DNA from: an uncultured Methanosarcinales archaeon
Lineage (GTDB): Archaea; Nanobdellota; Nanobdellia; Woesearchaeales; CAYMBN01
Length of the DNA stretch: 64,000 bases
Reading direction: 5' to 3'
NCBI GenBank assembly: GCA_964388715.1
Contig: CAYMBN010000003.1
Coordinates: forward strand, 1 to 64,000
The translations under genes and the position numbers were made by a program. A model generated the notes under the pieces. The model saw nothing but the letters and a program-made list of their open reading frames with translations. It was not told the origin of the DNA and made no database searches. This document shows, piece after piece, positions 12,452-57,019 of the stretch (positions are counted from its first letter, which is position 1; every line of letters starts with the position of its first letter).

Positions 12452-12462
12452 GGTGATAAAAA

Positions 12463-13158: not shown

Positions 13159-13167
13159 ATAGGAGGA

Positions 13168-13887: not shown

Positions 13888-13889
13888 AA

Positions 13890-14597: not shown

Positions 14598-14598
14598 A

Positions 14599-15372
14599 AT
14601 GACACAAACAATGAAAAATTACATTAAAAAATTACTTGATAAAGAAACAAGGCTTGATGGAAGAAAAACAGATGAATACAGAAAACCAATCAAAGTGGAA
14701 TATGGTGTTGTGAATTCAGCTGAAGGTTCTGCTCGTGTTACAATTGGTGAAACAGTTGTTTTGGCAGGAGTTAAACTTGAAGTGATTGCACCTTATCCAG
14801 ATGTTCCTAATAAAGGGACAATTATTGTTGGAGCAGAATTATTACCATTATCAAACCCAGAGTTTGAACCTGGTCCACCTGGAATACAAGCAATTGAAAT
14901 AGCAAGAGTTGTTGACAGAGGGATAAGAGAAAGTGAAGCACTTGATTTTGCTAAAATGTGTATCACACCTGGTGAAAAAGTATGGGCTTGCTTAATAGAT
15001 ATTTGTCCTATTAATGATGCAGGTAATCTGTTTGATGCAGGTGCATTAGCAGTTTTAGCAGCATTAAAAGATGCAAAATATCCTAAGTATGACGGTGAAA
15101 AAATTGATTACAGTGAAAAAACAAAAGAGTCATTGCCATTGTCAAAAGAACCATTATCATGTACTGTTCTTAAGATAGGTGATCATTATGTTGTTGATCC
15201 TGTTACTGAGGAAGAAAAAGTATATGATGCAAGGCTATCTGTAGCTGCACTTAAAGATGGTTCATTATGTGCAATGCAGAAAGGTGGTGAAGAGCCATTA
15301 ACATCAGAGCAATTGCTTGAAATGGTTGATCTTGCTGTTAAGAAAACAAAGGAATTAAGAAAAAGTATGTAG
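14599..15372 (+). CDS. rrp42: Exosome subunit Rrp42
   Basis: RLDGRK, AEGSARV, FEPGPP, EIARVVDRGIRES, AMQKGG. Confidence 0.96.
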   Translation: MTQTMKNYIKKLLDKETRLDGRKTDEYRKPIKVEYGVVNSAEGSARVTIGETVVLAGVKLEVIAPYPDVPNKGTIIVGAELLPLSNPEFEPGPPGIQAIEIARVVDRGIRESEALDFAKMCITPGEKVWACLIDICPINDAGNLFDAGALAVLAALKDAKYPKYDGEKIDYSEKTKESLPLSKEPLSCTVLKIGDHYVVDPVTEEEKVYDARLSVAALKDGSLCAMQKGGEEPLTSEQLLEMVDLAVKKTKELRKSM

Positions 15373-15376
15373 TAAA

Positions 15377-16363
15377 ATGGATTTGTTTTACAAACAAGGT
15401 AAAGGAAGTAAATTCATTAAAAAAGTAGCAACATTAGATGATTATCCTAAAGTTGAAGGATATGATTTTAGTAAAAAGTTTAATTTTAATGAATTTATTG
15501 ATTCTTTTTTTTCTACTGGGTTTCAAGCGACAAGATTAAAGGTTGCAGTGGATGTAATCAAACAAATGCGTGATAACAAAGCAAAGATTACATTTGGTTT
15601 TACTTCTAACATGATTTCATCTGGTTTGCGTGAGATAATAACTTATCTTGTCAAGAATAAGATGGTTGATCTTATTGTGACTGCAGCTGGTGGGATTGAA
15701 GAAGATATGATCAAAACATTGAAACCGTTTGTGATTGGGACGCAAAGAATGCCTGGTTCTATGTTGTTAGAGAATGGAATTAATAGAATAGGTAATATAT
15801 TTGTACCTAATGATCGTTATCTTTACTTTGAAAAGAAGTTTGTGCCTTTTTTGGAGGAGGTATATAGGAAAAAGAAGTCAATAAGTGGTGTTGAGTTTTT
15901 TAGTGAGCTTGGTAAGTATGTTAATGATAAAAGTTCTTTTCTTTATTGGGCTTACAAGAATAAGATTCCTGTGATATGTCCTGCAATAACAGATGGTGCA
16001 TTAGGTGATATGTTTTATTTTTTTAAGAAAAAACACTCTGATTTTAATGTTGATGTTATAAGTGATATGGTAGAGATAGTTGATAAAACAATGAATGCAG
16101 AGAAATCTGGGTTGATTGTTTTGGGAGCAGGTGTTGTAAAACATCATGTTCTTAATGCAAACATATTCAGAGAAGGAGCTGATTATACTGTTTTGATTAA
16201 CACAGGGAATGAGTTTGATGGTTCTGATTCTGGAGCTGACCCTGAAGAATCTGTATCATGGTGTAAGATAAGGCCAAATTCAGAATATGTTAAAGTAAAT
16301 TGTGATGCAACAATTGCATTTCCTTTGATTGTGAAAGCTGGGTTTGTTGATTATAAAAGTTAA
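15377..16363 (+). CDS. dys: Deoxyhypusine synthase
   Basis: TSNMISSGLRE, GGIEED, NRIGNIFVPN, DGSDSGA, ESVSWCK active-site Lys. Confidence 0.96.
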   Translation: MDLFYKQGKGSKFIKKVATLDDYPKVEGYDFSKKFNFNEFIDSFFSTGFQATRLKVAVDVIKQMRDNKAKITFGFTSNMISSGLREIITYLVKNKMVDLIVTAAGGIEEDMIKTLKPFVIGTQRMPGSMLLENGINRIGNIFVPNDRYLYFEKKFVPFLEEVYRKKKSISGVEFFSELGKYVNDKSSFLYWAYKNKIPVICPAITDGALGDMFYFFKKKHSDFNVDVISDMVEIVDKTMNAEKSGLIVLGAGVVKHHVLNANIFREGADYTVLINTGNEFDGSDSGADPEESVSWCKIRPNSEYVKVNCDATIAFPLIVKAGFVDYKS

Positions 16364-17223
16364 TCATAAAGAACTTGTTGTAAACCTTGTTTTTTATATT
16401 CTAATCTGAGCAGGTCTAGTCCTCTTTTAATGATTTTCATCATATCATCAAGAGTTGTATTGAATTTTTCAGCTGTTTGGGTTAAGGTTTTATACTCACC
16501 ATCAGTAAAACCAAACTTATATTCAATTGCCTTTCTTGCTTTTTCATCTAATTCCGGTAAAGCACTACGTATTTTTTGCCTGAAAATATTATTAATTGCT
16601 TCTTGTTGAACATCTACTGAAGTATCAATGATTACATCTTCGAGATATTGGCCATCACCAGTTGGAGTGTAGAATGGTATTGGTGTTTTGGTAGCTGTCA
16701 TAACTTTCTTAACTTCTTCATAAGGTAGTCCTGATTCTTCAGAAAGTTCACGTAAACTTAGATGTCTTCCATATTGTTTTGCGAGTCTTGTTGATAATCT
16801 TTTTAGTTTACTTGCACTTTCCCAAATATGAACTGGTACTCTTATATCTCTTCCTTGGTATTGAATCTCTCTTCTAATTGCTTGTTTTGCATGCCAGAAA
16901 AGTTTACTCCTTAGTTGATCTCCTGTTTTTCCCTTAAAATTCTTAATTACTTTAATTAAAACTTTATTTGCAGCTTGAATATAATTAATAAAACTGTCTT
17001 GTGAATAAGAATATCTTTTTGCTACATTTACAGAAATCATTAGATAATCTTTTACTAATTTATGAACTGCTTCAGGATCTCCTTGTTTTGCTAATGCAAT
17101 TAATCTTTCTTTATCATGAGGATTAAGTCGTGGAATTCTTCTAACTTCATTAAGATATTGTTTGACAATATCTTCTGTGAAAGTGTCTTTTTCTCCTAGG
17201 AAATCTCTTATTCTGTATATCAT
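16360..17223 (-). CDS. Divergent sigma70-family protein (copy D)
   Basis: Region 1.2 DIVKQYLNEV, WHAKQAIRREI, RDIRVPVH, region 3 and region 4 KFGFTDGEYKTL; regions 2.2 and 4.2 degenerate. Confidence 0.88.
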   Translation of the reverse strand: MIYRIRDFLGEKDTFTEDIVKQYLNEVRRIPRLNPHDKERLIALAKQGDPEAVHKLVKDYLMISVNVAKRYSYSQDSFINYIQAANKVLIKVIKNFKGKTGDQLRSKLFWHAKQAIRREIQYQGRDIRVPVHIWESASKLKRLSTRLAKQYGRHLSLRELSEESGLPYEEVKKVMTATKTPIPFYTPTGDGQYLEDVIIDTSVDVQQEAINNIFRQKIRSALPELDEKARKAIEYKFGFTDGEYKTLTQTAEKFNTTLDDMMKIIKRGLDLLRLEYKKQGLQQVLYD

Positions 17224-17245
17224 TTTTAGAAAGAATAGGTGTTAT

Positions 17246-17253
17246 TTTATAAA
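17246..17253 (-). promoter_or_regulatory. Archaeal BRE/TATA promoter of sigma copy D
   Basis: GATAAAA-TTTATAAA starting 30 nt upstream of ATG 17223 (leaderless spacing). Confidence 0.65.
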
Positions 17254-17258
17254 TTTTA

Positions 17259-18152
17259 TCAATCTAAAGGATATTCTCTTATTTCTCTTATTCTGCTAGA
17301 GTGTCTTAGTCTTAGTGTTGCTTTTGCTTCAATACCAATTATTTCTTTTGTTGTTACTCCAAATTGTTTGCATACTTCTTCTAATGAGTGTTGTGTACCA
17401 TCTTCAAGACCAACTCTGTATTTGAGAATGTTTGCTTGTCTTTCTGTTAAAAAGTCTAAAACATCTTTAACTCCTACTTTAAGACTTGATTGGTATGCAT
17501 TATCCATTGGTGTTTGTGCTTGTCTTTGTTCAGGAAAATCTCCTAGCAAAGAATCTTGTTCACCTATTGGTGTTTCTAGTGAGATTGGATCCATTGCTGT
17601 TTTTAGGATTTCTTTTACTTTTTGGACTGGGAATTGAGCTGACCTTGCGATTTCTTCATGAGTTGGATTTCTTCTATAATCTCCTGTTAGTCTTTCTGTT
17701 ATTTTTCTTATTTTGTTTATATCATCAACAAAATTTCTAGGTATTCTAATTGTTTTTTCTTGCTCTGCAAGTGCTCTTGTGATTGCTTGTCTAATGTGCC
17801 AAATAGCATATGATTGGAATTTGTATTTAGGATTGTAATTATATTTTTCAATTGCTTTTATTAATCCTTGATTGCCTTCTGCAATTAAATCAAGGAGAAA
17901 ATATCTGTTGTTTGCATATCCTCTTACAATGTTTGGGACAAGTTTCAGGTTTGCATTGATAAGTTTTTGTCTTGCTTCAAGATTCATGTTTTTGAATAAT
18001 CTTTTTTCTTCTTGATAAGGAAGATTAGGAACTTCACTAACTGCTCTTAGATACATTTTCACTGAATCTTCTAAAGGTTGTTCTCTATTTTGATCTATGA
18101 CTCTTGTTTTTTGAGCTATTCTTCCCTGTCCTGGTTTATTGTTTTTATACAT
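17259..18152 (-). CDS. Sigma70-family protein (copy C), altered -10/-35 recognition residues
   Basis: [61 protein letters not shown]. Confidence 0.93.
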   Translation of the reverse strand: MYKNNKPGQGRIAQKTRVIDQNREQPLEDSVKMYLRAVSEVPNLPYQEEKRLFKNMNLEARQKLINANLKLVPNIVRGYANNRYFLLDLIAEGNQGLIKAIEKYNYNPKYKFQSYAIWHIRQAITRALAEQEKTIRIPRNFVDDINKIRKITERLTGDYRRNPTHEEIARSAQFPVQKVKEILKTAMDPISLETPIGEQDSLLGDFPEQRQAQTPMDNAYQSSLKVGVKDVLDFLTERQANILKYRVGLEDGTQHSLEEVCKQFGVTTKEIIGIEAKATLRLRHSSRIREIREYPLD

Positions 18153-18197
18153 TTTATTAAGATATCGCCTCTAATTTATAGTGAATTATGGCTTTTA

Positions 18198-18205
18198 TTT
18201 ATAAA
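18198..18205 (-). promoter_or_regulatory. TATA box upstream of sigma copy C
   Basis: TTTATAAA in the 82-bp intergenic region; second TATAAAT at 18174-18180. Confidence 0.5.
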
Positions 18206-18234
18206 TTTAATTGAAAAATAGTGGTTTTTTAGAA

Positions 18235-19350
18235 TTAGTCTAAGTAATAATCTCTTAATTCTTTTGCTCTGCTTGGGTGTCTTAGTTTTCTTAATGCTTT
18301 TGCTTCAATTTGTCTGATACGTTCTCTTGTGACACCAAATAATTTACCTACTTCTTCTAATGTGTGTGGCACACCATCTTCTAAACCAAATCTATATTTG
18401 AGTACTTTTGCTTCTCTATCTGTTAATGTTCCTAGAACTCTTCTAATTTGTGCTTTGAGCATTGATTGAAATGCACCGTCCATTGGACTTTCTGAATCCT
18501 TATCTTCAACAAAATCAGCAATAGTACTATCACCTCCTCCAACAGGTGTTTCTAAAGGAACTGGATCTTTACCTCTTTCTAGAGCTTGTTGAACTTTGTA
18601 AATGGGTTGTCCTGAAGCTTTTGCAATTTCTTCATAAGTTGGATCTCTGCCATATTCTTGGGTTAATTTTCTTGCTGTTTTTCTTAATTTATTTATTGTT
18701 TCAACCATGTGAACAGGAATCCTAATTGTTCTTGCTTGGTCTGCAATTGCTCTTGTAATTGCTTGTCTAATCCACCAGATGGCGTATGTTGAAAATTTGA
18801 AACCTTTTCTGTATTTAAATTTTTTAACAGCTTTTAATAATCCTCTATTCCCTTCTTGAATTAAGTCAAGGAAAAGTAATCCTCTTTTTAGGTATTTTTT
18901 TGCAACAGATACAACTAATCTTAAATTTGCATTGATTAGTTTTTGTCTTGCTTCATAACTCCCTTGTTCAATAAGTTCTGCTAAATCTCTTTCTTCTTTT
19001 TCATTAAGAAGTGGAACTTCACCAATTGATTTTAAATACATTTTAACTGAATCTTCTAATGTGGCTAGTTCAGTGTGTTGATCAGGTGCTTGTTTTTTTG
19101 GTTTTTTTGTATATGGTTTTTCTTCTTTGTATCTAACTTCAACACCAGCTTTTAATATCTCTTCAAGAACATATTCCATTTGTGTTGAAGTGATTCCATC
19201 TGGTAAATCATCACTTAACCAATCATATTTTAAAGAATTTCCTGATTGTTTACCTTGTTGAATATAGGTTTTAATATATGGATTAAGTGCTTTTTCCCAT
19301 TGTGATCTTTCAGTAATATCCTCTAACTTTGTTTTTTTTGGATTTGACAT
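18235..19350 (-). CDS. rpoD: RpoD/SigA-like primary sigma70 factor (copy B)
   Basis: Region 1.1-like [105 protein letters not shown]. Confidence 0.97.
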
Positions 19351-19385
19351 TCTTCTATCTATGACTTGCTGAATTGAATTCTATA

Positions 19386-19393
19386 TTTATAAG
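19386..19393 (-). promoter_or_regulatory. TATA box upstream of sigma copy B
   Basis: CTTATAAATA ~43 nt upstream of ATG 19350. Confidence 0.55.
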
Positions 19394-19440
19394 GTTAATT
19401 GAGGAATATTTTAGTTTTTACCAAGAATTAGGGACAAATT

Positions 19441-21495
19441 TTAACCTAAATAAAATTCTCTTAATTGTTTGCTTCTGCTCGGATGTCTTAGTTTTCTTAA
19501 TGCTTTTGCTTCAATTTGTCTGATACGTTCTCTTGTAACACCAAATATTTTGCCAACTTCTTCTAATGTATGTGGACAACCATCTTCTAAACCAAAACGG
19601 TATCTGAGGACTTTTGATTCTCTTTCTGTTAAAGAATTAAGAACTCTCCTTATTTGTGCTTTTAACATTGATTGGAATGCAGTGTACATTGGATCTTCTG
19701 TTTTTTTATCTTCAACAAAATCTCCTAATGTTGAATCTTCGTCACCAATTGGTGTTTCTAATGATATTGGGTCCATTGCTGTTTTTAGGATTTCTTTTAC
19801 TTTGTGTACTGGAAGTTGAGCTGCTTTTCCAATTTCTTCATGAGTAGGATCTCTACCATATTCTTGTGTTAATTTTCTTGCTGTTTTTCTTAGTTTGTTT
19901 ATTGTTTCTACCATGTGAACTGGTATTCTTATTGTTCTTGCTTGGTCTGCAATTGCTCTTGTTATTGCTTGACGTATCCACCAGATTGCGTATGTTGAGA
20001 ATTTGAAACCTTTTCTGTATTTGAATTTTTTAACAGCTCTGATTAAGCCTTGGTTGCCTTCTTGAATTAGGTCCAGGAAAAGTAAACCTCTTTTTGTGTA
20101 TTTTTTTGCAACAGATACTACTAAACGTAGATTTGCCTCGATTAGTTTTGTTCTTGCTTCTAAGTTTCCTTGTTCAACAAGCACTGCTAACCTATATTCT
20201 TCTTCTACTTCAAGAAGTGGAACTTCACCAATTGCTTTTAAATACATTTTGACTGAATCTTCAAGAGCTTCTTTACTTAATTCAATACCAAACTGATTTA
20301 CTTTTTGTTTTCTTCTTCTTGCTGCTTTTAGTAAGGTATGTTTTCTTCTTTGTTCATCTTGTACTTCAATACCTGCTTCCATTATTGATGCAAGAAGTTC
20401 ATTAAGTGTGACTGTTTCAACTGCATCTGGTAGGTTATCATTAATCCATTTGTATGAAATAACTCCTGTTTTTTGTCCTTCTGCAAGGCATTGGTCAAGG
20501 AATATTTGCATACTTTTTTCTGAAGATACCTTTTTGTATTCAACATATTCTTCAGCAACTTTTTTAGCAGTTGTGCTAATTTCTTGATCTGTTAAAGGTT
20601 TTGTATATTGTTCAATATCTTGTTGTTGTTGCCAGTTATTTTTTACATCTTTAATGAATTTGTCAACTTGTGCTTCGAGTTTTGATTCATCTCTGTCTTT
20701 TAGAAGCCAGGTGAAGTCATAATCCTTTTTGAGAAAATAGTATGCTTTATTGACCTTTTCTAATCCTCTAAGTTTTTTTAAAAAACTTTCAGCATCATAT
20801 TCTTTTTTACCAGAAACCCTTAGTTTAATACCTGTGAGATTCTTTAAAACATTTTTAACAGATAGTTCGTTTTTTTCTTCTTCTGTAGACATACTTTTAG
20901 CTAGATGTGTATTAATACCATAACATTCTAATGTGTACCAATTAATCTCATCTCCATATTGTTCAAGTTCTGTTAGAAGTCTGTTAATGATTGTTGCGTA
21001 TTGTTTAGCTGTGTATTCTGGTTGAGGTTGTTTTTTTGCTTTGTATTCTAACAGGTTGGTTACAGTTGCTGTTTTTGTTACTGGTTCTTTTGTTAAGACT
21101 TGTTTTAATCTTTTGAGACTTTTTGTTGGGATGACATCATACTCTTTTCCTTTGTATTCAACTGTTTCAACTACATCTTCTTCATATAATTCTGCAACTT
21201 GTTGAATTGTGAGATTGAGTGCTTTTGAAATTTCTCTGATATTACAATACTTGATTAAAGTAAGTGCTTCTGAATCAAATCTTTCAAATACATCTCCTAG
21301 CATATGGTATAATAAACTTATTCCTAAGAATTGGTTATCTTCTGATAATATGTGATCAAGATCTGCTTTTAGGCCTTTTCTATACTTGAATGGTAGAATT
21401 CCCATTGGGTATAATTCATATGGGTTGATCTCTGTTTTTAATGGTGTAACTGTGCCTACTTTAGACTGATATTCTCCTCTTTTTGGTTTAACCAT
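19441..21495 (-). CDS. rpoD: RpoD/SigA-like sigma70 factor with ~320-aa N-terminal extension (copy A)
   Basis: C-terminal regions 1.1 ([18 protein letters not shown]), 1.2, 2, 3, 4 intact; extension has HTH-like [20 protein letters not shown]. Confidence 0.96.
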
Positions 21496-21517
21496 AATGT
21501 GTAAGAAAGAATGAGCA

Positions 21518-21525
21518 TTTTTAAA
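21518..21525 (-). promoter_or_regulatory. Archaeal BRE/TATA promoter of sigma copy A
   Basis: AAAGC-TTTAAAAA starting 30 nt upstream of ATG 21495. Confidence 0.6.
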
Positions 21526-22384
21526 GCTTTCGTCTTAACATTACAAAACTATTGTCCTGTGCGACTTGTAGTTTAAAGTAGTCTGAATATGTTATTTGAT
21601 CTTCTAGTGGTTGGATTTGGTTTAGGTAGTTTTCTGTTTCTGTGATACTGTCAACAACTTCTTGATATATTCTTTCTCCAATGAAATGTACTAAAAAACG
21701 TAAAAGTTTACCTTGTTTTGAATCAATTCTTCCTTTTATATGTTCATTGTTGATGTAATAATTGTTATCATCAAATGATATATCTCCTACATCTCTTGGA
21801 GGGTAGACTCTTTTAGCAAGGATAAATTGTTTAAAATAATCATCAATTGATTTTAGTTGGATAAGGTCTCCTAAGTCATCTTCTAATACTTTGACTTTAT
21901 TAGATTCCATTGCCTTTAAGATGTCTATGATTGATATTTTTGAGTAGATTTCTTGTTTTCTTAGCTCTTTGAAGATCTGTCTTACAGGAAGGTATTTATC
22001 TTGTTGTGCTTTTTCTAGTTGTTTTTGGATGATTTGTTGAGGAGATGGTTTATACAAGTCATTTAGGATAGGGAGGTCGCTACATAATATAAAATCTTCA
22101 TTATTAATTTCTTCTACAACTACTTCAATGCCAGTGTAGAGATCATCTTGGTTGACATTTGGCATTAGGTCCATGATTAAGAATGGATCAATATGTGTAT
22201 CATAATCTGGGTTTGTTTCACGCTGTTGTAAGTAATCAATAAAAAAACCAGGAATAACAAACTTTTTATTTGATTCTAGGAAAAATGTTTTTTCTAGATC
22301 TCCTAAAATAGATGGATCTTTTAAAATGCCTTGATTTATTATTTCATCAATCTTGTAATTTTGTTTTAAATTAATTTGTGTCAT
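21521..22384 (-). CDS. Protein with shared N-terminal [11 protein letters not shown] domain plus one Xis-like wHTH
   Basis: N-terminal ~110 aa paralogous to the 765- and 1062-aa neighbours; [11 protein letters not shown]...[11 protein letters not shown]. Confidence 0.8.
22121..22198. repeat. 78-bp perfect repeat, copy 1 (copy 2 at 24414-24491)
   Basis: Identical from tacttcaatgccagtgtagagatc to ggatcaatatgtgt, inside a ~165-bp highly similar block. Confidence 0.92.
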
Positions 22385-24668
22385 TTTTGTTTGTTATATA
22401 TTTTTGTGTTAACAATCTTGCTTGTTCTAGTTCAGGATTAAGTTCACAAGCTTTATCTAGGCTTCCTGCTTGAGTTATTTGTGAGTAATAGTCCAGGAAT
22501 GCTTTATGAATCCATATTTGAACACCAGATTTAAAAGATATTCTTGGAATTTTAAGTCCTTTAATATATTGTAAATATTTGTTAGAATCACTGATTTTAT
22601 TAAACTTTCTAAAATAATCTATAGCTCTGTTTCCTGTCATGAATTCAGGTCTAGTTATTACTTCTATTTTTAGCTTTAATTGTACTAAGTAATTTTTTAA
22701 TTCTGTTTTTTCTCTATGATAAGTGCTAATAGAGATTGTTTCTTTTACTTCTTCGTAGCTTACTTCTTCATTCCAGTTAACTGTTTTTAGAACTCTTAGA
22801 ACTTTTTGGTATTTTTCATCTTGCTTTAGTTGAGTTTGCCAATCAATATCTTGTGTTTCATCTAGTTTTTCTTCTAAACTTTGTTTTTGTTTGATTAAAC
22901 TGTTTACCTCAACACCTGCTTGTTTTAATTGTGGATAAAGTTCATATGCTTTTTTTAAGCTTCCAGCATCTACTATTTTCTGATAATGATCAAGGAACAC
23001 TTTGTGATACCATTTTGCCACTCTTCTTCCATGTAAAATTGGAATTTTGAATTTTTTAGCAAATTCACGCAAAGATTTTGCAATTACACCTCTTTTGCCA
23101 GTATATACTAAATAATCTAAAGCTATTTCTGTCCTTACAAAATTAGGATTAGCTTTTATTTCCATAATTAGTTTTTCTCTTAGTAAGTACTCATTAAGGT
23201 TTTTCCTTACTCTGTAAAAGGTATTTTCAGAAATTACATCCCATACTGACCCACATTCAATCTCTTCTTTGTTTTTGATTCTTTCTAGAAGTTTTACTAA
23301 TCCTTTGTATCTTTTATTTTTATTTAATTTATCTTGCCAATCAATATCTCCTGTTTCAGCAAGTTTTTTTTCTAAGTTTTTCTTTATTTGGATTATTCTG
23401 TTGACTTTTTTACTTATTTCTTTTAGTTCTGGATAAAGTTCATAAGCTTTTTCTAAGCTTCCTGCTTTAACTATTTGTTTATAATATTCAATAAACTTTT
23501 TGTGAATCCATTGGGTTTTGAATTTTCCACGTATTATTGGAATTTTGAATTCTTTGATAAAAGCAGAATATCCGTCATACCGGATTCCTTCACGTTTTCT
23601 GAAATATATAGAGCCTCTGTCTAAACCTAGGAAATTGTGGTCTGCTTTTAGTTCTAAACATAGTTTTAGGTCTAACAAATAAGTTTTCATTTTTCTTCTG
23701 AATCTTCTGTAACATGTGTTCTCCATAATATCTTCAACAGCTTTTAATCCTTGTTCTATTCCATCTGCAACTATGTTTAATGCCTTAATTATAGCTTGAT
23801 ATTTTTTGTTTTGTTTCAAATCAAATCCATCCAGTGTTTCTTCTTCTAAACTTTGCATTTGATTATTTATTTTTTCTGTTAGTGATTTTGCTTTTTCTAA
23901 CTCTGGAAATAATTTGTAAATTTCTTTTAGGTTATCGCTTTCTATTATATCATTATAATGGTCAAGAAATTTTCTATGGGTCCATTTAGTCTTTCCTGTG
24001 CCATGGATTATTGGAACTAGTTGAAGAAATGCTGTATAATCATTAGAACATAGAGTGGTAGTAATATTTGTTCTAGCATATTCTTCACCTTGTCTAGCTT
24101 TAAAAAAATCTGGATTGGCTTCTAATTCCATATTGATCTTTTGTTTTGTTAGGAATTTGTGCATGCTGAATTTATGTCGTGTGTAGCTGCAATGTGACAT
24201 AATTGGTTTAACCATTTTATAATCAATTTTTTCATCATCTATGTTTAGAAGTCTTAAAATTTTTTGATATTTTTCATCTTGTTTTAGTTCAGTCATCCAT
24301 TCTGGTTCAAAATGTTTGAAAATCTCTTGTTCAATTTTTTCACCATACAACTCATTTAGGATAGGTAAGTCACTGCATAATATAAAATCTTCATTATTAA
24401 TTTCTTCAACAAGTACTTCAATGCCAGTGTAGAGATCATCTTGGTTGACATTTGGCATTAGGTCCATGATTAAGAATGGATCAATATGTGTGTCATAATC
24501 TGGGTTTGTTTTACGTTTTTGTAGGAAGTCAGCGAAAAACCATGGTACCCAGAATTGGTTTTCATCTTCTACAAAAAATACATTATCTAAGATATTTGGT
24601 CCTTTTATAATATGATTCTCTACTAAATCATCAATACTGTATAATTGTTCTTGTTTGATTAGTATCAT
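22371..24668 (-). CDS. Shared N-terminal domain plus four ~160-aa tandem repeats with Xis-like wHTH
   Basis: Repeat LKQDEKYQK...ANPDF...IPII.G...W.HK.FLDHY...AGSL.KAYELYPEL occurs four times. Confidence 0.85.
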   Translation of the reverse strand: MILIKQEQLYSIDDLVENHIIKGPNILDNVFFVEDENQFWVPWFFADFLQKRKTNPDYDTHIDPFLIMDLMPNVNQDDLYTGIEVLVEEINNEDFILCSDLPILNELYGEKIEQEIFKHFEPEWMTELKQDEKYQKILRLLNIDDEKIDYKMVKPIMSHCSYTRHKFSMHKFLTKQKINMELEANPDFFKARQGEEYARTNITTTLCSNDYTAFLQLVPIIHGTGKTKWTHRKFLDHYNDIIESDNLKEIYKLFPELEKAKSLTEKINNQMQSLEEETLDGFDLKQNKKYQAIIKALNIVADGIEQGLKAVEDIMENTCYRRFRRKMKTYLLDLKLCLELKADHNFLGLDRGSIYFRKREGIRYDGYSAFIKEFKIPIIRGKFKTQWIHKKFIEYYKQIVKAGSLEKAYELYPELKEISKKVNRIIQIKKNLEKKLAETGDIDWQDKLNKNKRYKGLVKLLERIKNKEEIECGSVWDVISENTFYRVRKNLNEYLLREKLIMEIKANPNFVRTEIALDYLVYTGKRGVIAKSLREFAKKFKIPILHGRRVAKWYHKVFLDHYQKIVDAGSLKKAYELYPQLKQAGVEVNSLIKQKQSLEEKLDETQDIDWQTQLKQDEKYQKVLRVLKTVNWNEEVSYEEVKETISISTYHREKTELKNYLVQLKLKIEVITRPEFMTGNRAIDYFRKFNKISDSNKYLQYIKGLKIPRISFKSGVQIWIHKAFLDYYSQITQAGSLDKACELNPELEQARLLTQKYITNKNDTN
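24414..24491. repeat. 78-bp perfect repeat, copy 2
   Basis: Identical to 22121-22198. Confidence 0.92.
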
Positions 24669-27600
24669 TTTCTTTTCTTTGGTTGTGGAACTGATAAAAA
24701 TAATAATGGAAGGCTTTGATAAATATCACTTTTACTTATGTATGTTATCACATCACTTTTTTTGTAGGGTTGACCTTGTTTATTTAATCTAGGTGTTCCG
24801 TTGTCATATGCAGCACTTTTGATTGTATCTTTATTTAATCCAGAAAGTTCTGAAAGTTCATCATAAGTAAACATTTCCTGTTGTTCAAATGCTAATATTC
24901 TTTCATCAATGAAATTTTTTAATGAGTTTAAGTTATATGATCCTTGCTTCTGACGTATTTTAGTTCTTTTTATAAGTTTTTTAAAGTGTGTTTCTCTGAA
25001 CAATTGAAAATCTAAGATAATTGTTCTTTTTCTTCCTACATATTGGGTGGCTTTTTGTGAGAGTTTTTCACCTAAGTATTCCAAAATGTACATTATTGCT
25101 AGTTTTTCAGGAAGAAATTCTGGTTCTTGTTTGAGTTGTTCTTTGTGTTTGTTGATTATTTCTGCTTGACAATAGCCTGCTTGGATGTTAAACTCATGTT
25201 CTCCTAATTCTTGTAATCTTTGTGTGAGTAAGCTCTTTTTAACACCTTGTTCTTTGCATATTCTTTTGATGGTATATAATAAGTCTTTTCCATGTTTGTC
25301 TTTAATTACTCCTAAATCTTGCACTTTTTCAATAACTCTGTTTACTTTTGTTTTTTTATAAAAATTTACTTTTTTTCCAGTAAGAGGACTAATAACTTGT
25401 TTGTCCATATCAAAAAGTTGTGGGAAGTAAAAATTAAATGCTTTTGAACTACCGTATCTTTTTGTAACTAAAGCATTTCCTAGTAAATGTACTGCTCTTC
25501 TTTTATTGTAGTAGTTTATGTGATTCTTATAATATGCAATGAACCTGTCAATAAAAATCATTAATTCTTCGGCAATTCTTCTTATATTTTCGTATTTTCT
25601 GATGTTTATTCCTTTTACTCTTAGTGTTGGAAAATTCTTTTCTTCTCTCCAATCTAATTTTTGATCAAGATCTTTTTCAAGTTGAACAATGTGTTCTAGT
25701 GCACCTAAATATCTGTCGGCAAAATTATATCTTATCTCTTTGTCATTACATTGTTTGGCTACTTCTATACATTCTAATTTCTTATCTAAAATATATTGGG
25801 ATATGTCTTCTTTTGTGATTTGTTTTTTTGTAGTCTTTCCTAAAATATGGTCAATTGATTCAACAAAACAAAATCCTTCCTCAAGTAATTCTTTATCTTT
25901 TTGTCCACCTAATAACATTAAGATACCTTGTTTTTCTAGTTTAGTCATCTGTTTGACTTTCTCTAATGTGTAAAGGAAAGGGTTGCCTTCAAAGTCAACT
26001 AGGATTCCTTCTTCATCCAGTTGTTTTTTTATTTCTTCAAGTTCTTGTTCAATAGAAGGATTGTAAAAACCTACTACTTCACCAGAAATTGGATGTTGTA
26101 ATTGGTGATCTGGTGTTAGGTCAATATGTTTTCTGTATAATTCATAAGCTGAATTATGTTCTCCAATTAGTTCATATTTTATTTTTGACTCAATTCTTTT
26201 ATCCATAACATAATTTACTTGGGCGTTATTAAAATCAATTTCTACTCTGATCATGTGTTCTATGTCTTTTATTAATGGATGTAATTTTCTCCCAATAAAT
26301 GTGAGATCTGACCTTCTTACTTTACTTAAATTTACATCCCCTCTTTTTAATATATAATCTGGGCCATTTTCAGTTAAATCAATTAGTTGTCTGAATACAT
26401 CTAGTTTAGGTTCTGTTGATCTTTTTACTCTAAATCTGAGGGTTTCATCTGTAATATTTTCTAATTCATCTTGTAAATTATTATATCTTTCAAGTAATCG
26501 TTCTTTGTTAAATTCGTACTCTAACTCTCTTCTTGCTTCATCATGTTTAGAAAATTCTTTTTCAACAACACCTTCCTTATGATATCTAAGCAATTCTTGT
26601 TTGTCAACAACCTCAAGAGCTCCTATTCTTATTGTTTTAAGTTTTTTAACTTGTCTTATTGGGACTAATCGCTTGTGTTTTACAAATCTAATTGGGATAT
26701 ATTCAAAAGGGTAATCTTGGATATAATATATTTTTTCTCGTCTTTTTTGTTTATGTTTTTTACGTGTTGGTTTGTATCCTGGTTTAAATATCTCTGGGTT
26801 GTCTTCTTTTAAAATAACTTCTTCAAGTCCGTTAGGGTCAAGGGATATATTTCTTGTTTTAATTTTCCAAGTCCTAACCTGCTGTGCAACTGATTCTGAA
26901 GTTACTTTCAATAATTCAGCCAATTCAACAAAATTGTATTTTTCTTTTCCAACACATCTTAATTCTTTTATTTGTTCAATTTCATCTTGATATAATTGGT
27001 TATCTTTATCTAAACTGATAAGGCCTTGTCTTACAGATCTTATAAAAATTTGTTCACAAGTTCCTAATTCTTTACCTTTTATTCCAAGTGATGCAAAAAA
27101 ATGTCCATAGAATCTAAATAGACTTCTTTTTAGTTTGATAATCTCTGATTCAGGGATTCTTATTGTTTTTGTTTTAAAATTATATGCTTGGGCTTCTCCT
27201 TTTTTTGTATAAGAAGCAACTGTGTTATCAGTCACTCCTATTATTTCATTTACAGTTTTTCTATCAAATAATCTTTCACCAAAATGTTCTTTTTTAAATC
27301 CAAAATGTTTTTCTAGTTTTGTTTCAAGTTCTTGTCTTTCATATACAAAAGGATTGGCACCAAATGTTTTTTTTACTTTTTTTCCTGGTTTTTTTCTTTT
27401 TATATTACATTTCTTTTTCATGTGTTCCCATACTATAATGGAAACATTCAGTAATTTGAGTATTTCTGGTGTTGTATATTCATCTTGAATGAATTTTTCA
27501 ACTATGACTGGTTCATCATACAATGTGTTTAGGATTGATAATTCACTCGCTGGGACAAAATCTTGGCCTTCTATTTCTTCTACAAGGACTTCAAGGCCAG

Positions 27601-27853
27601 TAAAGAGATTATCTTGGTTGACATTATGCATTAGGTCTAAAATTATGAATGGGTCTATGTTTGTATCATAGTCTGGGTTTGTTTCACGTTGTTTTAAGAA
27701 TTCAAGAACAAAGCCTGGGATTAGTGTTCCATTGTTATGTGACTTTAAAACAAATGTTTTTTCCTGGTCCCATAATACAGTTGGGTCTTGTAATACATTT
27801 GATTCTAATAAATAAGTAAGATTGTAAAGCTTCTGCTCTTGAATTCTTATCAT
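24665..27853 (-). CDS. 1062-aa protein: shared N-terminal domain plus multiple Xis/MerR-like HTH modules
   Basis: FDRKTVNEIIGVTDNTVASYTKKGEAQAY...IRIPESEI, YNFVELAELLKVTSESV, FTYDELSELSGLNKDTI; internal ~235-aa duplication. Confidence 0.85.
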   Translation of the reverse strand: MIRIQEQKLYNLTYLLESNVLQDPTVLWDQEKTFVLKSHNNGTLIPGFVLEFLKQRETNPDYDTNIDPFIILDLMHNVNQDNLFTGLEVLVEEIEGQDFVPASELSILNTLYDEPVIVEKFIQDEYTTPEILKLLNVSIIVWEHMKKKCNIKRKKPGKKVKKTFGANPFVYERQELETKLEKHFGFKKEHFGERLFDRKTVNEIIGVTDNTVASYTKKGEAQAYNFKTKTIRIPESEIIKLKRSLFRFYGHFFASLGIKGKELGTCEQIFIRSVRQGLISLDKDNQLYQDEIEQIKELRCVGKEKYNFVELAELLKVTSESVAQQVRTWKIKTRNISLDPNGLEEVILKEDNPEIFKPGYKPTRKKHKQKRREKIYYIQDYPFEYIPIRFVKHKRLVPIRQVKKLKTIRIGALEVVDKQELLRYHKEGVVEKEFSKHDEARRELEYEFNKERLLERYNNLQDELENITDETLRFRVKRSTEPKLDVFRQLIDLTENGPDYILKRGDVNLSKVRRSDLTFIGRKLHPLIKDIEHMIRVEIDFNNAQVNYVMDKRIESKIKYELIGEHNSAYELYRKHIDLTPDHQLQHPISGEVVGFYNPSIEQELEEIKKQLDEEGILVDFEGNPFLYTLEKVKQMTKLEKQGILMLLGGQKDKELLEEGFCFVESIDHILGKTTKKQITKEDISQYILDKKLECIEVAKQCNDKEIRYNFADRYLGALEHIVQLEKDLDQKLDWREEKNFPTLRVKGINIRKYENIRRIAEELMIFIDRFIAYYKNHINYYNKRRAVHLLGNALVTKRYGSSKAFNFYFPQLFDMDKQVISPLTGKKVNFYKKTKVNRVIEKVQDLGVIKDKHGKDLLYTIKRICKEQGVKKSLLTQRLQELGEHEFNIQAGYCQAEIINKHKEQLKQEPEFLPEKLAIMYILEYLGEKLSQKATQYVGRKRTIILDFQLFRETHFKKLIKRTKIRQKQGSYNLNSLKNFIDERILAFEQQEMFTYDELSELSGLNKDTIKSAAYDNGTPRLNKQGQPYKKSDVITYISKSDIYQSLPLLFLSVPQPKKRK

Positions 27854-27854
27854 T

Positions 27855-27914
27855 TTTCATTTCAAATTTCTTTGAAATTTGTAATTAATAGGAAATTCCA
27901 TTTCCAATTCATTT
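27855..27914 (-). repeat. 60-bp intergenic double-hairpin repeat, copy 1
   Basis: 53/60 identical to 52025-52084; minus strand GGAAAT-GGA-ATTTCC and CAAATTTC-AAA-GAAATTTG. Confidence 0.85.
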
Positions 27915-27916
27915 GA

Positions 27917-30817
27917 TTAAGTTTTCTGCATTAATCCTCTAAGAATAATTTTAGCTCCTTCTCTTTTAACTGTTCCAGAATCTGGGAAATCTTCTATGTT
28001 AGTTGCTTTTCTGCTTTGGACTGCTCTAAAAACATCTCTTTTTTGAATAGATGGGTCTAATCTTGTAGCAGTGGATGGAAGTGATCTAACAAGGATTTCA
28101 TCTCCTTCTAGCATAGAATCGATTTTTGAGTCAATACTATCTGCTTGAGCAGCAGCTGGTTCTGGTGCTGCAGGTTTAACAGGAGGGATTGGTTCTTGTA
28201 CTGCTACTGGTTCAGCTCCTGCTTCAGCTGGAGTGCCTGGTTTGTAAGGTGTTTCTGGTTTTTTTGGAACAGGTGTTACTTTTATTGGTGGTTTACCTCT
28301 TGTTCCTTTACCTCTTTCACTAATTATTCCCTCAATTTTGTTTCCATATTGTTCTTTTACTTTTTCAATATTACCAGTTTCTAGAACAAATATTTCTCCT
28401 TTATATCCATGAACCCTTTGTTTTTTAATTAAGCCTGATAAACCATCTGTGTTTTTATATAATTTCTGAAACTCTGTAACATCTAAATTAAAAATTGTTG
28501 CAACTGGTTTTGAACCTATAATGTGCTTTGATGTTGGAGTTAAATGATCTTTATAATATTCTTTAGCTTTATTTATTATCTCATCTAATTCTGCTCTTGT
28601 TGCAACACACACAGGAACCATATTTTGACCAACTAGTTTATCTTCTTTTTTTGGTTTACCAATTACTTCTTTTCTTATTAAAAATTGATATTTTGAAATA
28701 GTAAAATCAAAGTCAAGCTTTCCATTGATATAATCTATATGTTCTTTTTGACCATATATCTTTTCTTCTGTTGGTTCTTCTGGTTTAGTTCCTTCTATCT
28801 TAGCTAAAATATCTGAAAGTTCGCCTGTTTCTTGTTCAGCTTTTCTTTTGAGATATTCTGTTATTTCTGGCATGTTGTGGCTGAGTGAAACTATTTGCTT
28901 TGTGTCAATGTTTCTTTTTAATTCAAGATAAGCAAAACTCAAAAGTTTGTCAAGTGCAATCTTTTGTTCTCCATCAATTTGTTCTATTATAGGAAGATAT
29001 TCTTCCCATTTCTCAGAATCATCTGGTGAATGTCCAAATAGGGTTGCTACTTGATCTCTTGATAAATATATTTCACCATTAAGTCCTTGTTCTCTTTCTT
29101 CTTTAACCTTTTTATCAATCCTTACATAATCATCTATAGTCTCAATAGCATCAAAAACACTATCTGGATTCATGTACTCTTCTTTTTCTTTAATTCCTTG
29201 GCTATTAAGGATTCTTACAAATAAATTTTCAAATTTGTCTAGATCAATATCTTTAGAATAAAATTCTGTTAGTGATTTCAAAACATCTAGTATATTATAT
29301 ATTGTTTTGTGTTTTTCATCTTGGCTGGCTGCATCTTCTCCAACAGTTTTATTGATCTCTATTTCTATCTGAGAGTATCGTGCTTCTACTTCTGGTAGAT
29401 CTGGTTCTGGAGGGATTGTAGCTGGTTCTTCTTCCTTACTAACTTCACCAACAAACTTATACTTTGTTTCAATTTTTTCATCAGTGATTAATTTTTCTAG
29501 AACACTTGTATTCATTACTTTTCCAATTCTATGCTTAAAACTCCTTCTACTGGGTTCATTTTTGTATTCTTCAGAAGCGTCTTGTAGTAGATTTGAATAT
29601 TTTCTACGCACTGTTTCAGCACTTATACCTAAAATATCAGCAGTTAAAGCTATACTTATTTCTGTGTTTCTTGTTAAATTGTAATCAATTTTTGGTTCTG
29701 CTGTTGCCTTAGGATGTCCTGGAGTGAATAATTCTGAATATTTTAATATTTGAGTTGCGGTTATCCCTTTTTTGTAATCTAATTTCTTAACTCCTCTTTT
29801 TTTGTTGTGTCTTTTTACTCTTGAAAATAATGTTTTATAGTTTACACCAGATAATTTTTCTATTTGTGAAAGAGTGTACTTCTTTCTTGGGTGACTTCTG
29901 TCAAGCCAAGGTAGGATTTCTTCAGGAACTTTAGGTTTAGCTTTTTCAACTGTTTTATCAATTGTTTCAGAAACAATAGGTTCTGTTGGAACAGCTTTAT
30001 GTTCCTTCCCAGTAATCTGATCTACAACACTAGCAGGACAGTAACCCATCTTGATAAGATTTTCATGTACTTTGGATTCTTGTTGCTTTTTGATTAATTC
30101 TTCTTTGTTTAAACCAGTTAGTTCAACAGCTTTATCAAGTGAGTATAGTAATGGTTGACCAGCAACATCCATTACTTCAGGTAGTTTTTCTCTTACAACA
30201 TGCTTATATAATGATGATCTGTTGACTGGTGTTGGTCTTACATCAAATGTAATATTGTATTTTTTACCAAATTCTTGTAATGCATTAATAATAACTTGGC
30301 TTATTTGTTCATATTTATCAGCAGGGTGTCCTTCTTGTTGTGTATCCAACACAAATCTTTTGAAGTATCTGTTATCTTGTTTAGTTTCAATACCTTCTAG
30401 AGTTAAATTATTGAGTAATTCACTTTCACCGAGGATAGGTAAGATTACTTCAAAAGTATGACCATGGTTAGAAAGAACAAAATAGGTTGGGATTGTGTTT
30501 TCTTCATCAAAGCATGCAAACTTTTCCATTAATCTTTTTTCTCCTTCAGAAAGGTAGCTTTCGTCTAGTTCAATGGAATCTTGATTTAATTCTTGTCTAA
30601 ATGCTTTGAATCTTTCATATAAAAGTAATTCTTGATCAAATTTTTCAGGATCTTCTTGTCTAAGTGCTTCAACATGTTTGATTCTTTTATCAACTTCTTG
30701 GTATAATTTTTCAACAAGATCTGTTATGAGAAGATTTTTTCCTCTTATTGTGTTATCATGTGATTTTGAGTCTATTTGAGAAAAACCATTTGCAAAATAA
30801 TCAGCATTAATTTCCAT
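27917..30817 (-). CDS. 966-aa multi-HTH protein
   Basis: ATG 30817 behind GAGGTG; YSLDKAVELTGLNK, YTLSQIEKLSGVNYKTL, ISIALTADILGISAETVRRKY; Pro/Ala-rich linker near C-terminus. Confidence 0.82.
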   Translation of the reverse strand: MEINADYFANGFSQIDSKSHDNTIRGKNLLITDLVEKLYQEVDKRIKHVEALRQEDPEKFDQELLLYERFKAFRQELNQDSIELDESYLSEGEKRLMEKFACFDEENTIPTYFVLSNHGHTFEVILPILGESELLNNLTLEGIETKQDNRYFKRFVLDTQQEGHPADKYEQISQVIINALQEFGKKYNITFDVRPTPVNRSSLYKHVVREKLPEVMDVAGQPLLYSLDKAVELTGLNKEELIKKQQESKVHENLIKMGYCPASVVDQITGKEHKAVPTEPIVSETIDKTVEKAKPKVPEEILPWLDRSHPRKKYTLSQIEKLSGVNYKTLFSRVKRHNKKRGVKKLDYKKGITATQILKYSELFTPGHPKATAEPKIDYNLTRNTEISIALTADILGISAETVRRKYSNLLQDASEEYKNEPSRRSFKHRIGKVMNTSVLEKLITDEKIETKYKFVGEVSKEEEPATIPPEPDLPEVEARYSQIEIEINKTVGEDAASQDEKHKTIYNILDVLKSLTEFYSKDIDLDKFENLFVRILNSQGIKEKEEYMNPDSVFDAIETIDDYVRIDKKVKEEREQGLNGEIYLSRDQVATLFGHSPDDSEKWEEYLPIIEQIDGEQKIALDKLLSFAYLELKRNIDTKQIVSLSHNMPEITEYLKRKAEQETGELSDILAKIEGTKPEEPTEEKIYGQKEHIDYINGKLDFDFTISKYQFLIRKEVIGKPKKEDKLVGQNMVPVCVATRAELDEIINKAKEYYKDHLTPTSKHIIGSKPVATIFNLDVTEFQKLYKNTDGLSGLIKKQRVHGYKGEIFVLETGNIEKVKEQYGNKIEGIISERGKGTRGKPPIKVTPVPKKPETPYKPGTPAEAGAEPVAVQEPIPPVKPAAPEPAAAQADSIDSKIDSMLEGDEILVRSLPSTATRLDPSIQKRDVFRAVQSRKATNIEDFPDSGTVKREGAKIILRGLMQKT

Positions 30818-30963
30818 ACTAAACACCTCTGAAAAGCAAAAATCGTTTATCTTATTTAAATTTTTTCTTTGATTTGTCGTCGGAAAAAGTGGTAAAAACA
30901 GCAATATTTTATCTAAAATTTTAAATATGAATTAGTATTTATAATTGAATTAGAGGTGTTCAA

Positions 30964-31914
30964 ATGAAAAAAAGTGTTTTTGTTATACTATTCTTGTTAG
31001 TAGTTCCAATTGTTTTTAGTTTAGAAATTAGTGAGATTGCTGTTTATGTTAATGGTGACAAAGATATTGTAAGAGATAAAGGTACTATATATGATGTTCA
31101 GCCTGATTCTGATGTCAAGTTGAGGATAACTGTTGATAATGAAAAATCTACTGAAGTTGAAGATGTTAAGATTAAAGCAGTGATTTATGATATTGATGAT
31201 CATGATGATCTTGATGATGAAACATCTCATTTTGATATTGAAGGGCATGATGATAAAACAAAAACACTTGAGTTTGAGGTTCCTTTAGAAGTTGAATCAG
31301 GAACTTATAGATTGGCTATTACAGCTGAATCTAATTATGGTGAAACAGATTCTGCAACACTCAATCTTGAATTGGATAAGAATTCTCATGATGTTAGGGT
31401 TTTTCAATTATCACTTTCACCTGAAAGAGTTAGATGTAAAAGAAATTTTTATCTTTCATTTAAAGTTATTAATGTTGGGGAAGATAATGAAGATGTTGTG
31501 TTAACTGTTAATAATGAACAATTGGAAATTAATGATGTTCATAAGTTTTGGTTAAGTAAAAGTGTTGGTGATGATGATAATGAAAAAAGAAAAATGTATT
31601 CTTATTCTTTGAATGGTGCAAGGCCAGGAGATTATATTATTAATGTTAATTTGCAATATAAAACAAAATTACAAACTTATAAAGTTCCATTAAGAATTGA
31701 AAAGTGTACTAAGGAATATTCTATTGATGGTGAAGTTGAATATTTGAAAGCTTATAGAATTGATGATGAAAATGTTCCACCTGAAGTTACTTCTTTTGTA
31801 ACAAAAACAGTAACAAAAGAAAAAACAGATAACACTTTAACACTTTTAGTTGTGAGTGGGTTGTTAGGATTTATTGTAGTTGTGTTTTTATTGATGTGGT
31901 TGTTGAAGAATTAA
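30964..31914 (+). CDS. Cell-surface protein, two Ig-like domains, C-terminal TM anchor
   Basis: Signal peptide, acidic beta-rich repeats, C-terminal TM; paralogue of 42083-43063. Confidence 0.8.
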   Translation: MKKSVFVILFLLVVPIVFSLEISEIAVYVNGDKDIVRDKGTIYDVQPDSDVKLRITVDNEKSTEVEDVKIKAVIYDIDDHDDLDDETSHFDIEGHDDKTKTLEFEVPLEVESGTYRLAITAESNYGETDSATLNLELDKNSHDVRVFQLSLSPERVRCKRNFYLSFKVINVGEDNEDVVLTVNNEQLEINDVHKFWLSKSVGDDDNEKRKMYSYSLNGARPGDYIINVNLQYKTKLQTYKVPLRIEKCTKEYSIDGEVEYLKAYRIDDENVPPEVTSFVTKTVTKEKTDNTLTLLVVSGLLGFIVVVFLLMWLLKN

Positions 31915-31941
31915 TTTTTTTATAGTCAAACATAATTATTG

Positions 31942-56949: not shown

Positions 56950-57019
56950 CTCTATTCACTAGATTACAATAATATTTATAAGTGAATTCTGTATTTTATT
57001 GAACTAAGTGGGGGTTTTG

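Follow-up and report, generated by a model that had tools for sequence, protein, structure and literature searches.

Sigma factors of the bacterial sigma70 family are known from archaea. Where it deals with them, a review (PMC6126073) credits Rinke et al. (2013) with the first archaeal sigma factors. In the passages on this family (fam00359), Castelle et al. 2021 (PMC8204110) describe sigma-70 as prevalent in Woesearchaeota, with mis-binning excluded, no anti-sigma factor identified and a role that is unclear. Huge phages also encode sigma70 according to the relevant part of PMC7162821, which is a precedent for a parasite-encoded sigma factor. The locus described here is a cluster of eight genes, four of them sigma70 paralogues, in an archaeon of the order Woesearchaeales. 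It lies in the first 64,000 nt of contig CAYMBN010000003.1 (the window), analysed as contig C3 of a 1.30-Mb genome (G000) with a completeness of 95.75% and a contamination of 0.47%. Comparison with bacterial and archaeal genomes suggests that the sigma copies are tools for steering the gene expression of a bacterial host, and points to a possible host. An earlier note on this DNA presented the cluster as a new system, which overstates the sigma part because sigma70 of DPANN and Woesearchaeota is already published in the passages cited (PMC8204110). What is new relative to the known archaeal sigma70 is the donor match, to the clade of the bacterium G496, and the archaeal codons. In the literature on archaeal sigma factors and host pairing, with subscription papers mostly outside coverage, no report was found that matches DPANN sigma factors to a donor, describes them as polyphyletic or gives them an effector role.

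Capture of a bacterial housekeeping sigma factor

The four paralogues are here called sigma684, sigma371, sigma297 and sigma287, after their lengths in amino acids (aa). Their identification as sigma70 in the earlier note agrees with the Pfam and RpoD profile matches. Regions 1.1, 1.2, 2, 3 and 4 are all above the Pfam cut-offs in sigma684 and sigma371, whereas sigma297 has regions 2, 3 and 4, and sigma287 has just regions 3 and 4 above cut-off, yet is matched by RpoD models at E 6e-39. With TIGR02393 (curated cut-off 354 bits), sigma684 (376.8) and sigma371 (365.1) score over the cut-off and the other two reach 250 and 123. The RpoD part of sigma684 corresponds to residues ~322–684 (window 19441–~20530). 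The earlier description of this gene as carrying a complete RpoD stands, while the helix-turn-helix (HTH) placed in its N-terminus is not detected by Pfam.

The nearest named proteins to the window sigmas are the RpoD of Wallbacteria, Riflebacteria and Muiribacteriota, and four unnamed proteins are closer. Among 81 genomes of the phylum that includes the Riflebacteria genome G481, protein P0009 was found at 100% identity in the bacterium G496 (genome 5.7 Mb) and protein P0008 in G489. Each lies directly downstream of dnaG, and these are therefore housekeeping sigma factors. Sigma684 shares 86.7% identity with the G496 RpoD over 362 residues (regions 1.1–4), and by region the identity is 82% (1.1), 92% (1.2–2.4), 82% (3) and 95% (4). 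The two bacteria themselves share only 55% in region 1.1. Two metagenome scans for the context of P0009 returned either nothing or 10 matches, all by chance and lacking a sigma gene, and a viral scan gave 0.

The tree contains 43 rows, of which 11 are archaeal, being three window sigmas and eight others of at least 52% identity. Sigma287 (a long branch), the suspected contaminant of G014 and unpublished genomes were left out, and the unnamed database proteins were taken as bacterial. The three window sigmas nest within a 10-row bacterial clade of G496 and G489 sigmas (starred in the tree; 98/92). The archaeal rows require at least four label changes, the remaining archaeal sigmas falling elsewhere, and a single archaeal clade is rejected (approximately unbiased test, p=4.8e-49) in a tree that has long branches and uneven bacterial sampling. 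By this phylogeny the archaeal sigmas are polyphyletic, through repeated capture; a second archaeal sigma, from G028, branches in the same bacterial phylum as G496, at a best identity of 68%. These data show that an ancestor of this archaeon captured a housekeeping rpoD from the G496/G489 lineage, in the phylum of Riflebacteria. The N-terminal extension of sigma684 contains a VLxxLTGIKLR motif that is common to the N-terminal extension of the G496 RpoD. The local score of this match (52) is reached by 1.5% of 3000 shuffles (p about 0.015), and it is the best pair among the proteins from the nearest-sigma search and among 3041 open reading frames (ORFs). The stretch taken over from the bacterium probably begins at this motif.

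Four-fold-site GC is 0.08–0.10 in the four sigma genes, compared with a genome median of 0.099 (556 ORFs) and 0.60–0.76 in the G496 and G489 sigma genes. Against G496 the proportion of synonymous differences is saturated and the nonsynonymous divergence (dN) is 0.09–0.11, a combination that an unsampled AT-rich donor could also produce. Sigma684 and sigma371, however, differ by a synonymous divergence (dS) of 0.52 and a dN of 0.14 (dN/dS about 0.27), a hint of purifying selection after duplication. At donor-conserved sites, the positions where G496 and G489 agree, divergence rises stepwise in gene order from sigma684 to sigma287 (24/262, 48/262, 95/259 and 167/257 changes). The history reconstructed from these values shows capture, recoding to archaeal codons, duplication and selective retention of the sigma.

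The same stepwise series would be left by a decaying passenger, a captured rpoD that has been duplicated and is drifting, with unrelated orphan genes as its neighbours at a variable spot after the exosome operon. A patchy and polyphyletic distribution fits this explanation, as do the sigma genes beside the exosome operon at 2 of 60 other loci and the internal stop in one relative (G050). Decay is nevertheless improbable, as all four sigma reading frames are intact, the dN/dS between sigma684 and sigma371 is only about 0.27, synonymous recoding is complete with the protein kept, and sigma genes are retained in about a third of the genomes of the order. At E<=1e-10, TIGR02393 matches 125 of 401 genomes of the order, only 3 of them over the cut-off, and 70 of 201 genomes of the phylum; both counts include this genome, and the first includes nine flagged as unpublished (G111, G131, G370, G182, G244, G335, G209, G120 and G273).

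Sigma genes of other genomes have features of their own. G496 and G489 have three primary-type sigma paralogues each, on separate contigs (L244–L249), and the second paralogue of G496 resembles sigma371 in having a short linker and a single inserted residue in region 1.1. Derivation of sigma371 from this bacterial paralogue, considered because of the common insertion, has no support from identity (27% versus 24–30% for the others). Four archaeal loci (L153, L155, L152 and L158, in G399, G256, G094 and G331) have sigmas in which region 1.2 is followed by a large insert resembling the non-conserved region known from other bacterial phyla; L153 and L155 look Planctomycete-like and L152 deltaproteobacterial. 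The sigma at L106 (G014:C67) is on a 6.6-kb contig of a bin that is 6% contaminated and has a lysine-rich N-terminus typical of bacterial primary sigmas. It is possibly a contaminant and was left out of the counts.

Conserved residues and the archaeal polymerase

The region 2.2 core-binding residues D403/Q406/E407/N409, the melting residues Y430/W433/W434, and Q437/T440 and R584/E585/R588 are all kept in sigma684 and sigma371, and every listed −10 and −35 recognition residue is intact in sigma371. These two are group 1 sigma70 factors by sequence, and not the primary sigma of this cell. Sigma297 keeps the core-binding D403, E407 and N409, with Q406 changed to A, but lacks W434 and the recognition helix of region 4.2. 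Most core and promoter residues are lost in sigma287, with changes at the equivalents of E. coli Y430, W434, D403, E407 and R584/E585/R586/R588/Q589. Judged by these residues, two of the four copies, sigma297 and sigma287, have lost promoter recognition.

Conservation was counted over 98 archaeal sigma rows, which include the four window rows and five from unpublished genomes, exclude G014 and are not independent of each other. Core-binding positions are kept at 0.76 compared with 0.63 for random invariant positions (p=0.008), and the polar ones at 0.84 compared with 0.61 for other invariant polar positions (p=0.0009). The core-binding D403, G408, G411 and E407 are among the best-kept residues across the archaeal sigmas. 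The −35 positions are kept at 0.79 (p=0.003), or at 0.78 (p=0.002) in the comparison with polar positions.

This strong conservation of the −35 helix throughout the family would also be expected of stand-alone DNA-binding regulators or chromatin proteins that act inside the archaeon, reusing sigma region 4 (and 2), with the basic orphan proteins belonging to the same set. The sigmas are all basic, as are two upstream proteins (pI 8.8–9.5), many relatives' sigmas carry long and varied N-terminal extensions, and an export signal was not found on the proteins. Such a role is rather unlikely in view of the core-binding D403, G408, G411 and E407 being among the best kept, of region 1.1 being kept at 82%, and of TTGACA, which is enriched neither upstream of genes (16 vs 17) nor genome-wide (984 vs 990). 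Region 1.1 blocks the DNA binding of free sigma, according to the part of bioRxiv 2020.09.07.285775 that deals with it.

A search for rpoB and rpoC in this 95.75%-complete genome found only one Rpb2-type and one Rpb1-type locus, which are adjacent and both archaeal. This speaks against the earlier proposal that the sigmas are partners for a bacterial-type RNA polymerase (RNAP) encoded elsewhere in the genome. TBP is encoded once and TFB twice. In the archaeal largest subunit, the coiled coil of the clamp can be aligned gap-free with that of bacterial beta-prime. Of nine sigma-contact residues, taken from the pertinent passages of PMC10216364 and bioRxiv 2020.09.07.285775, the archaeal clamp keeps two and G496 all nine; the changes include R275I, R281E, E295L and A302H. 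Among 29 relatives the clamp hardly varies, whether or not they have a sigma. The count of TTTATAAA in 510 upstream regions is 153, compared with 26.8 ± 4.7 in shuffles. The same regions have no excess of sigma70 promoters, with 43 −35/−10 pairs (at most two mismatches) vs 34.9 ± 5.8, and a sigma70 promoter scan of the cluster is at chance (78 vs 68 ± 9).

Two explanations that keep the sigmas at work within the archaeon are affected by these results. In one, the RNAP core of the host is imported via a cytoplasmic bridge, and the archaeon's own sigmas transcribe a few genes with it or strip the host of its core. On this view neither the donor match nor the retained core surface would call for sigma to be exported. 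The genome, however, lacks an excess of sigma70 promoters and has a full TBP/TFB system, and to our knowledge the import of a ~400-kDa enzyme has no precedent, which makes a borrowed core distinctly improbable. In the other, sigma docks on the homologous, gap-free aligned clamp of the archaeal RNAP as a cofactor for a TBP/TFB-independent start; in the passages concerned, Castelle et al. (PMC8204110) leave open a role in archaeal transcription regulation. This is very improbable, since 7 of the 9 contact residues differ, the clamp shows no adaptation in sigma-bearing genomes and sigma70 promoters are not enriched.

Gene order, upstream proteins and other sigma loci

Between 16360 and 30817/30904 the minus strand carries the eight contiguous ORFs of the cluster, whose lengths in order of position are 287, 297, 371, 684, 287, 765, 1062 and 966/995 aa (Table 1). 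The most upstream ORF is 966 aa long from the ATG at 30817, or 995 aa from the TTG at 30904. The ORF calls agree with the earlier note on the contiguity and common orientation of the genes and on the overlaps at 24665/24668 and 22371/22384; the remaining spacers are 25–90 nt. Each sigma gene is preceded by a TATA-like box at 30–53 nt, and the sigmas may therefore be transcribed separately. The TTTAAATA box is likely to be the promoter of the upstream block.

Table 1. Features of the sigma70 cluster, with positions in the window
Feature	Position	Strand	Description
sigma287	16360..17223	-	most diverged paralogue; without region 1.1; 167/257 donor-conserved sites changed
TATA-like box TTTATAAA	17246..17253	-	30 nt before sigma287
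sigma297	17259..18152	-	without region 1.1; 95/259 donor-conserved sites changed
TATA-like box TTTATAAA	18198..18205	-	53 nt before sigma297
sigma371	18235..19350	-	complete group-1-type sigma70 by sequence, region 1.1 diverged; 48/262 donor-conserved sites changed
TATA-like box CTTATAAA	19386..19393	-	43 nt before sigma371
sigma684	19441..21495	-	~325-aa N-terminal extension and complete RpoD; 24/262 donor-conserved sites changed
VLxxLTGIKLR motif	20815..20862	-	within sigma684 extension; common to N-terminal extension of G496 RpoD
287-aa acidic orphan	21521..22384	-	N-terminal NPDYD domain (~22050-22384); no Pfam family
765-aa orphan	22371..24668	-	NPDYD domain and four ~166-aa all-helical repeats (predicted)
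1062-aa basic orphan	24665..27853	-	NPDYD domain; sub-threshold HTH_17; stretches weakly common with 966-aa protein
966-aa orphan	27917..30817	-	without NPDYD; two HTH-start-like motifs; 995 aa if TTG 30904
TATA-like box TTTAAATA	30853..30860	-	43 nt before ATG 30817

On the left, the cluster is flanked by archaeal genes for exosome Rrp4/41/42, proteasome alpha, SBDS and deoxyhypusine synthase (DHS), and on the right by an S-layer-like gene. Single contigs of the seawater runs X1 and X2 bridge 14154/14193–17619 (Rrp41/42, DHS, sigma287 and part of sigma297) with 0 differences, and the right border is bridged from 30327 to 32100 with 0–1 differences. Depth at these pieces is ~4–10 in most bins, with a few local peaks, and is similar at both borders. 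The eight genes are real and archaeal, and the cluster is not a chimeric join with a bacterial contig, an event which the earlier note had named as one that would undo its proposal. An assembly or binning artefact could be suspected because this is a metagenome assembly, X1 and X2 are possibly its source sample and none of the pieces listed covers the entire cluster. It is hardly credible given the bridged borders, the similar depth, the host-like codons, the 0.47% contamination and the presence of sigma genes in the complete or near-complete genomes of the relatives G016 (one contig) and G028 (three contigs).

As noted before, there is no integrase or phage structural gene, these families being absent from an NCBIfam scan of the 51 window proteins. 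No direct repeat among the 20 largest repeat families flanks the cluster, and its GC is host-like; it thus lacks the integrase, phage structural genes, terminal repeats and odd composition of a mobile element. The two other loci with sigma70 genes beside an exosome/proteasome operon are L177 and L186 (G185:C18 and G360:C12). In L186 the sigma is directly after Rrp42 on the same strand. The exosome region here is at 11358–16363, a possible insertion hot spot. Elsewhere in the window there are bacterial-type genes at 49335–50084, 54218–54817, 1045–1884 and 3928–6680 (lgt, a PolC-like DEDD exonuclease, speE, tpi, class II aldolase and glpX). A giant ORF on the plus strand (57008–64000, >2331 aa) is open at the window end; inspection by eye suggests subtilase, PHP-like, lipase-like and PKD parts, and its composition is strongly skewed relative to its neighbours.

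Three of the four upstream proteins have an N-terminal domain of ~110 aa, here called NPDYD, that is in neither the 966-aa protein nor the sigmas. The copies in the 287-aa and 765-aa genes share 91% DNA identity over 195 nt. The earlier note saw repeated Xis/MerR-like winged HTH modules in all four proteins. This is weakly borne out in two of them, by an HTH_17 match in the 1062-aa protein (residues 203–243, 23.1 bits, with the cut-off at 27) and a weak match of the 765-aa protein to Mga HTH (E 0.002), while the 287-aa and 995-aa proteins have no Pfam HTH match. The 966-aa and 1062-aa proteins are similar to each other (phmmer E 1e-9). For the ~166-aa repeat of the 765-aa protein, which is predicted to be helical, no fold match was found (best Z 5.3; Foldseek none), and the single-sequence model of the 1062-aa protein is unusable (pLDDT 33). 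An iterative HTH profile did not grow, and a genome-wide HTH_17 search missed even the known stretch of the 1062-aa protein.

Searches for homologues of the upstream proteins returned only this organism or nothing, although one of these searches also missed P0009 and was limited in sensitivity; the ESM Atlas gave only unnamed clusters, with low recognition. The co-occurrence of NPDYD with sigma70 in related genomes, which the earlier note suggested as a check, is not seen, the domain being in 0 of 300 other genomes of the order and in none of the further protein sets searched. Homology of NPDYD to the N-terminal extensions of other archaeal sigmas, plausible by eye, was rejected (profile E 0.74, hhalign probability <2%, leave-one-out ranks of 196–393 or unlisted). 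A 123-aa database protein (P0004) begins exactly like the 287-aa NPDYD protein but ends in another acidic tail, and represents either a variant allele or a misassembly.

Tandem sigmas are found at 7 of 60 other archaeal loci, one of them a triple, and four in a row only here. No neighbour family is common with these 60 loci, and no homologue of the upstream proteins is present there. A soluble, co-oriented ORF of at least 500 aa without a Pfam match is the direct upstream neighbour of 6 of 14 long sigmas but of none of 46 short ones (Fisher p=6e-5). The background rate, from 72/87 other large ORFs, is estimated at 1.9%. This layout is thus repeated in six other genomes (five families), though not with homologous sequences. 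One of these orphans carries HTH_17 and several are repeat proteins. Orphan repeat proteins directly upstream of long sigmas are at L160:10457–13297, L112:11902–13566, L155:10598–12721 and L169:11744–13933; the L160 orphan has about five copies of a ~110-aa unit and that of L112 three HTH-like units. One functional module, as proposed in the earlier note, is hypothetical; the layout recurs, but NPDYD is absent from the 300 genomes, the 60 loci have no homologues and each sigma has a TATA-like box of its own.

A proposed role in a bacterial host and comparison with known systems

The sigma is donor-like, including its core-binding helix and region 1.1, and the polymerase and promoters of the archaeon do not fit it; the simplest explanation is that it acts on the polymerase of a bacterium. 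It is quite possible, if somewhat short of probable, that the cluster encodes host-directed sigma mimics and decoys acting on the polymerase of a bacterial partner, with binding, export, expression and host identity all presumed. The earlier note had listed effectors for a bacterial partner or host RNAP as one option, and this option has gained indirect support from the capture from one lineage, the purifying selection and the kept core surface. Further indirect support comes from the incompatible archaeal clamp, the lack of sigma70 promoters and two candidate peptidoglycan hydrolases with N-terminal hydrophobic leaders, an SLT+M23 protein of 1691 aa (C9:24736–29811) and an SLT protein of 727 aa (C4:8129–10312). 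In the passages concerned, PMC8204110 takes proteins of this kind as a hint of bacterial hosts.

A DPANN archaeon of the Woesearchaeota type living on a bacterium would wield the cluster as a transcription-interference kit. The captured rpoD has been recoded, extended at its N-terminus and expanded to four tandem paralogues, of which selection has kept one nearly identical to the donor protein. The products would act on the RNAP of the partner, the only core they would fit. With it, sigma684 and sigma371 would assemble into holoenzyme and recognise normal −35/−10 promoters, and would either sustain host housekeeping transcription outside host control or redirect it via the domain added at the N-terminus. 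Core-binding decoys or competitors of altered specificity are the roles envisaged for sigma297 and, with less certainty, for sigma287. The four soluble upstream orphans may be co-delivered effectors that bind DNA or polymerase, and NPDYD could, as a guess, be a common export or docking tag.

Several observations weigh against host-directed mimics and decoys. The main gap is that no export route was found: no hydrophobic segment is present in any of the eight cluster proteins (maximum 19-residue hydropathy 1.08), no VirB4-type ATPase is over cut-off in the genome, and the only ATPases of a possible export kind are the four pilus or type II secretion-type matches over cut-off. The export tag is a guess because NPDYD is absent from the sigmas and the 966-aa protein, and its homology to sigma extensions is not significant. 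Over the 98 archaeal rows, the −10 positions (0.71) are not kept above other invariant positions (p=0.09; polar ones only 0.42), and 75 of the rows have less than 50% identity to the bacterial consensus, as would be expected just as much from decay or a different function. The core-binding, −10 and −35 residue lists were fixed before counting and later confirmed in part. The thresholds for the orphan layout were set post hoc (p=0.07 at 400 aa, 0.009 at 450 and 5e-4 at 500), and the 60 comparison loci were picked by score. Finally, the donor of a gene need not be the host.

The generalisation is more tentative than the proposal of mimics and decoys at this locus. Woesearchaeota may repeatedly turn the captured primary sigma of their hosts into delivered cross-domain effectors, with this locus holding a mimic, a variant, two decoys and tagged orphans. 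The least-diverged sigma would then name the host, here the G496 lineage (Riflebacteria/Wallbacteria group).

Two open questions meet at this locus, the role of sigma70 in archaea without a bacterial core and the bacterial hosts of Woesearchaeota, the latter left open in the passages of PMC8204110. Here a sigma is close enough to name the donor lineage, and its paralogues grade naturally from intact copies to promoter-blind ones. Both what DPANN sigmas do and whether the hosts are bacterial can therefore be tested directly. If the effector reading is true, a cell of one domain would reprogram transcription in another, so far a strategy of phages, and sigma phylogeny would be a host-prediction tool for about a third of the order.

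The closest described system is the DPANN sigma-70 of PMC8204110 (fam00359), which is likewise a bacterial sigma70 in a Woesearchaeota-type genome, alongside TBP/TFB and on a contig with archaeal markers. Donor, polyphyly, tandem arrays, residue analysis and neighbouring orphans are absent from the passages of that paper, and here there are four tandem copies, one of them 87% identical to the housekeeping sigma of a specific bacterium. Group 1 sigmas without the non-conserved region (SigA/RpoD, such as B. subtilis SigA, PDB 7ckq_F, and the G496 and G489 RpoD) have the regions 1.1–4 and the tested residues that are also in sigma684 and sigma371. Unlike them, the window sigmas have no cognate core in the genome, lie outside a dnaG operon, use AT-rich archaeal codons, include a ~325-aa extension and have two paralogues without the promoter-recognition helix. 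The bacterial group 2 expansions of G496 and G489, with three paralogues each, have a similar graded divergence from one primary sigma, but they occupy different contigs and retain the helix of region 4.2, whereas the window copies are in tandem and two have lost it. Phages appropriate sigma function, as in T4 gp55 and AsiA/MotA, and the likeness to a phage sigma70 would be that of a parasite-encoded sigma for a host core that the parasite does not encode, the action on the host being presumed here. Unlike in phages, the carrier is a cell of another domain, and therefore the protein and not the gene must cross envelopes, and the sigma would be a near copy of the primary factor of the presumed host.

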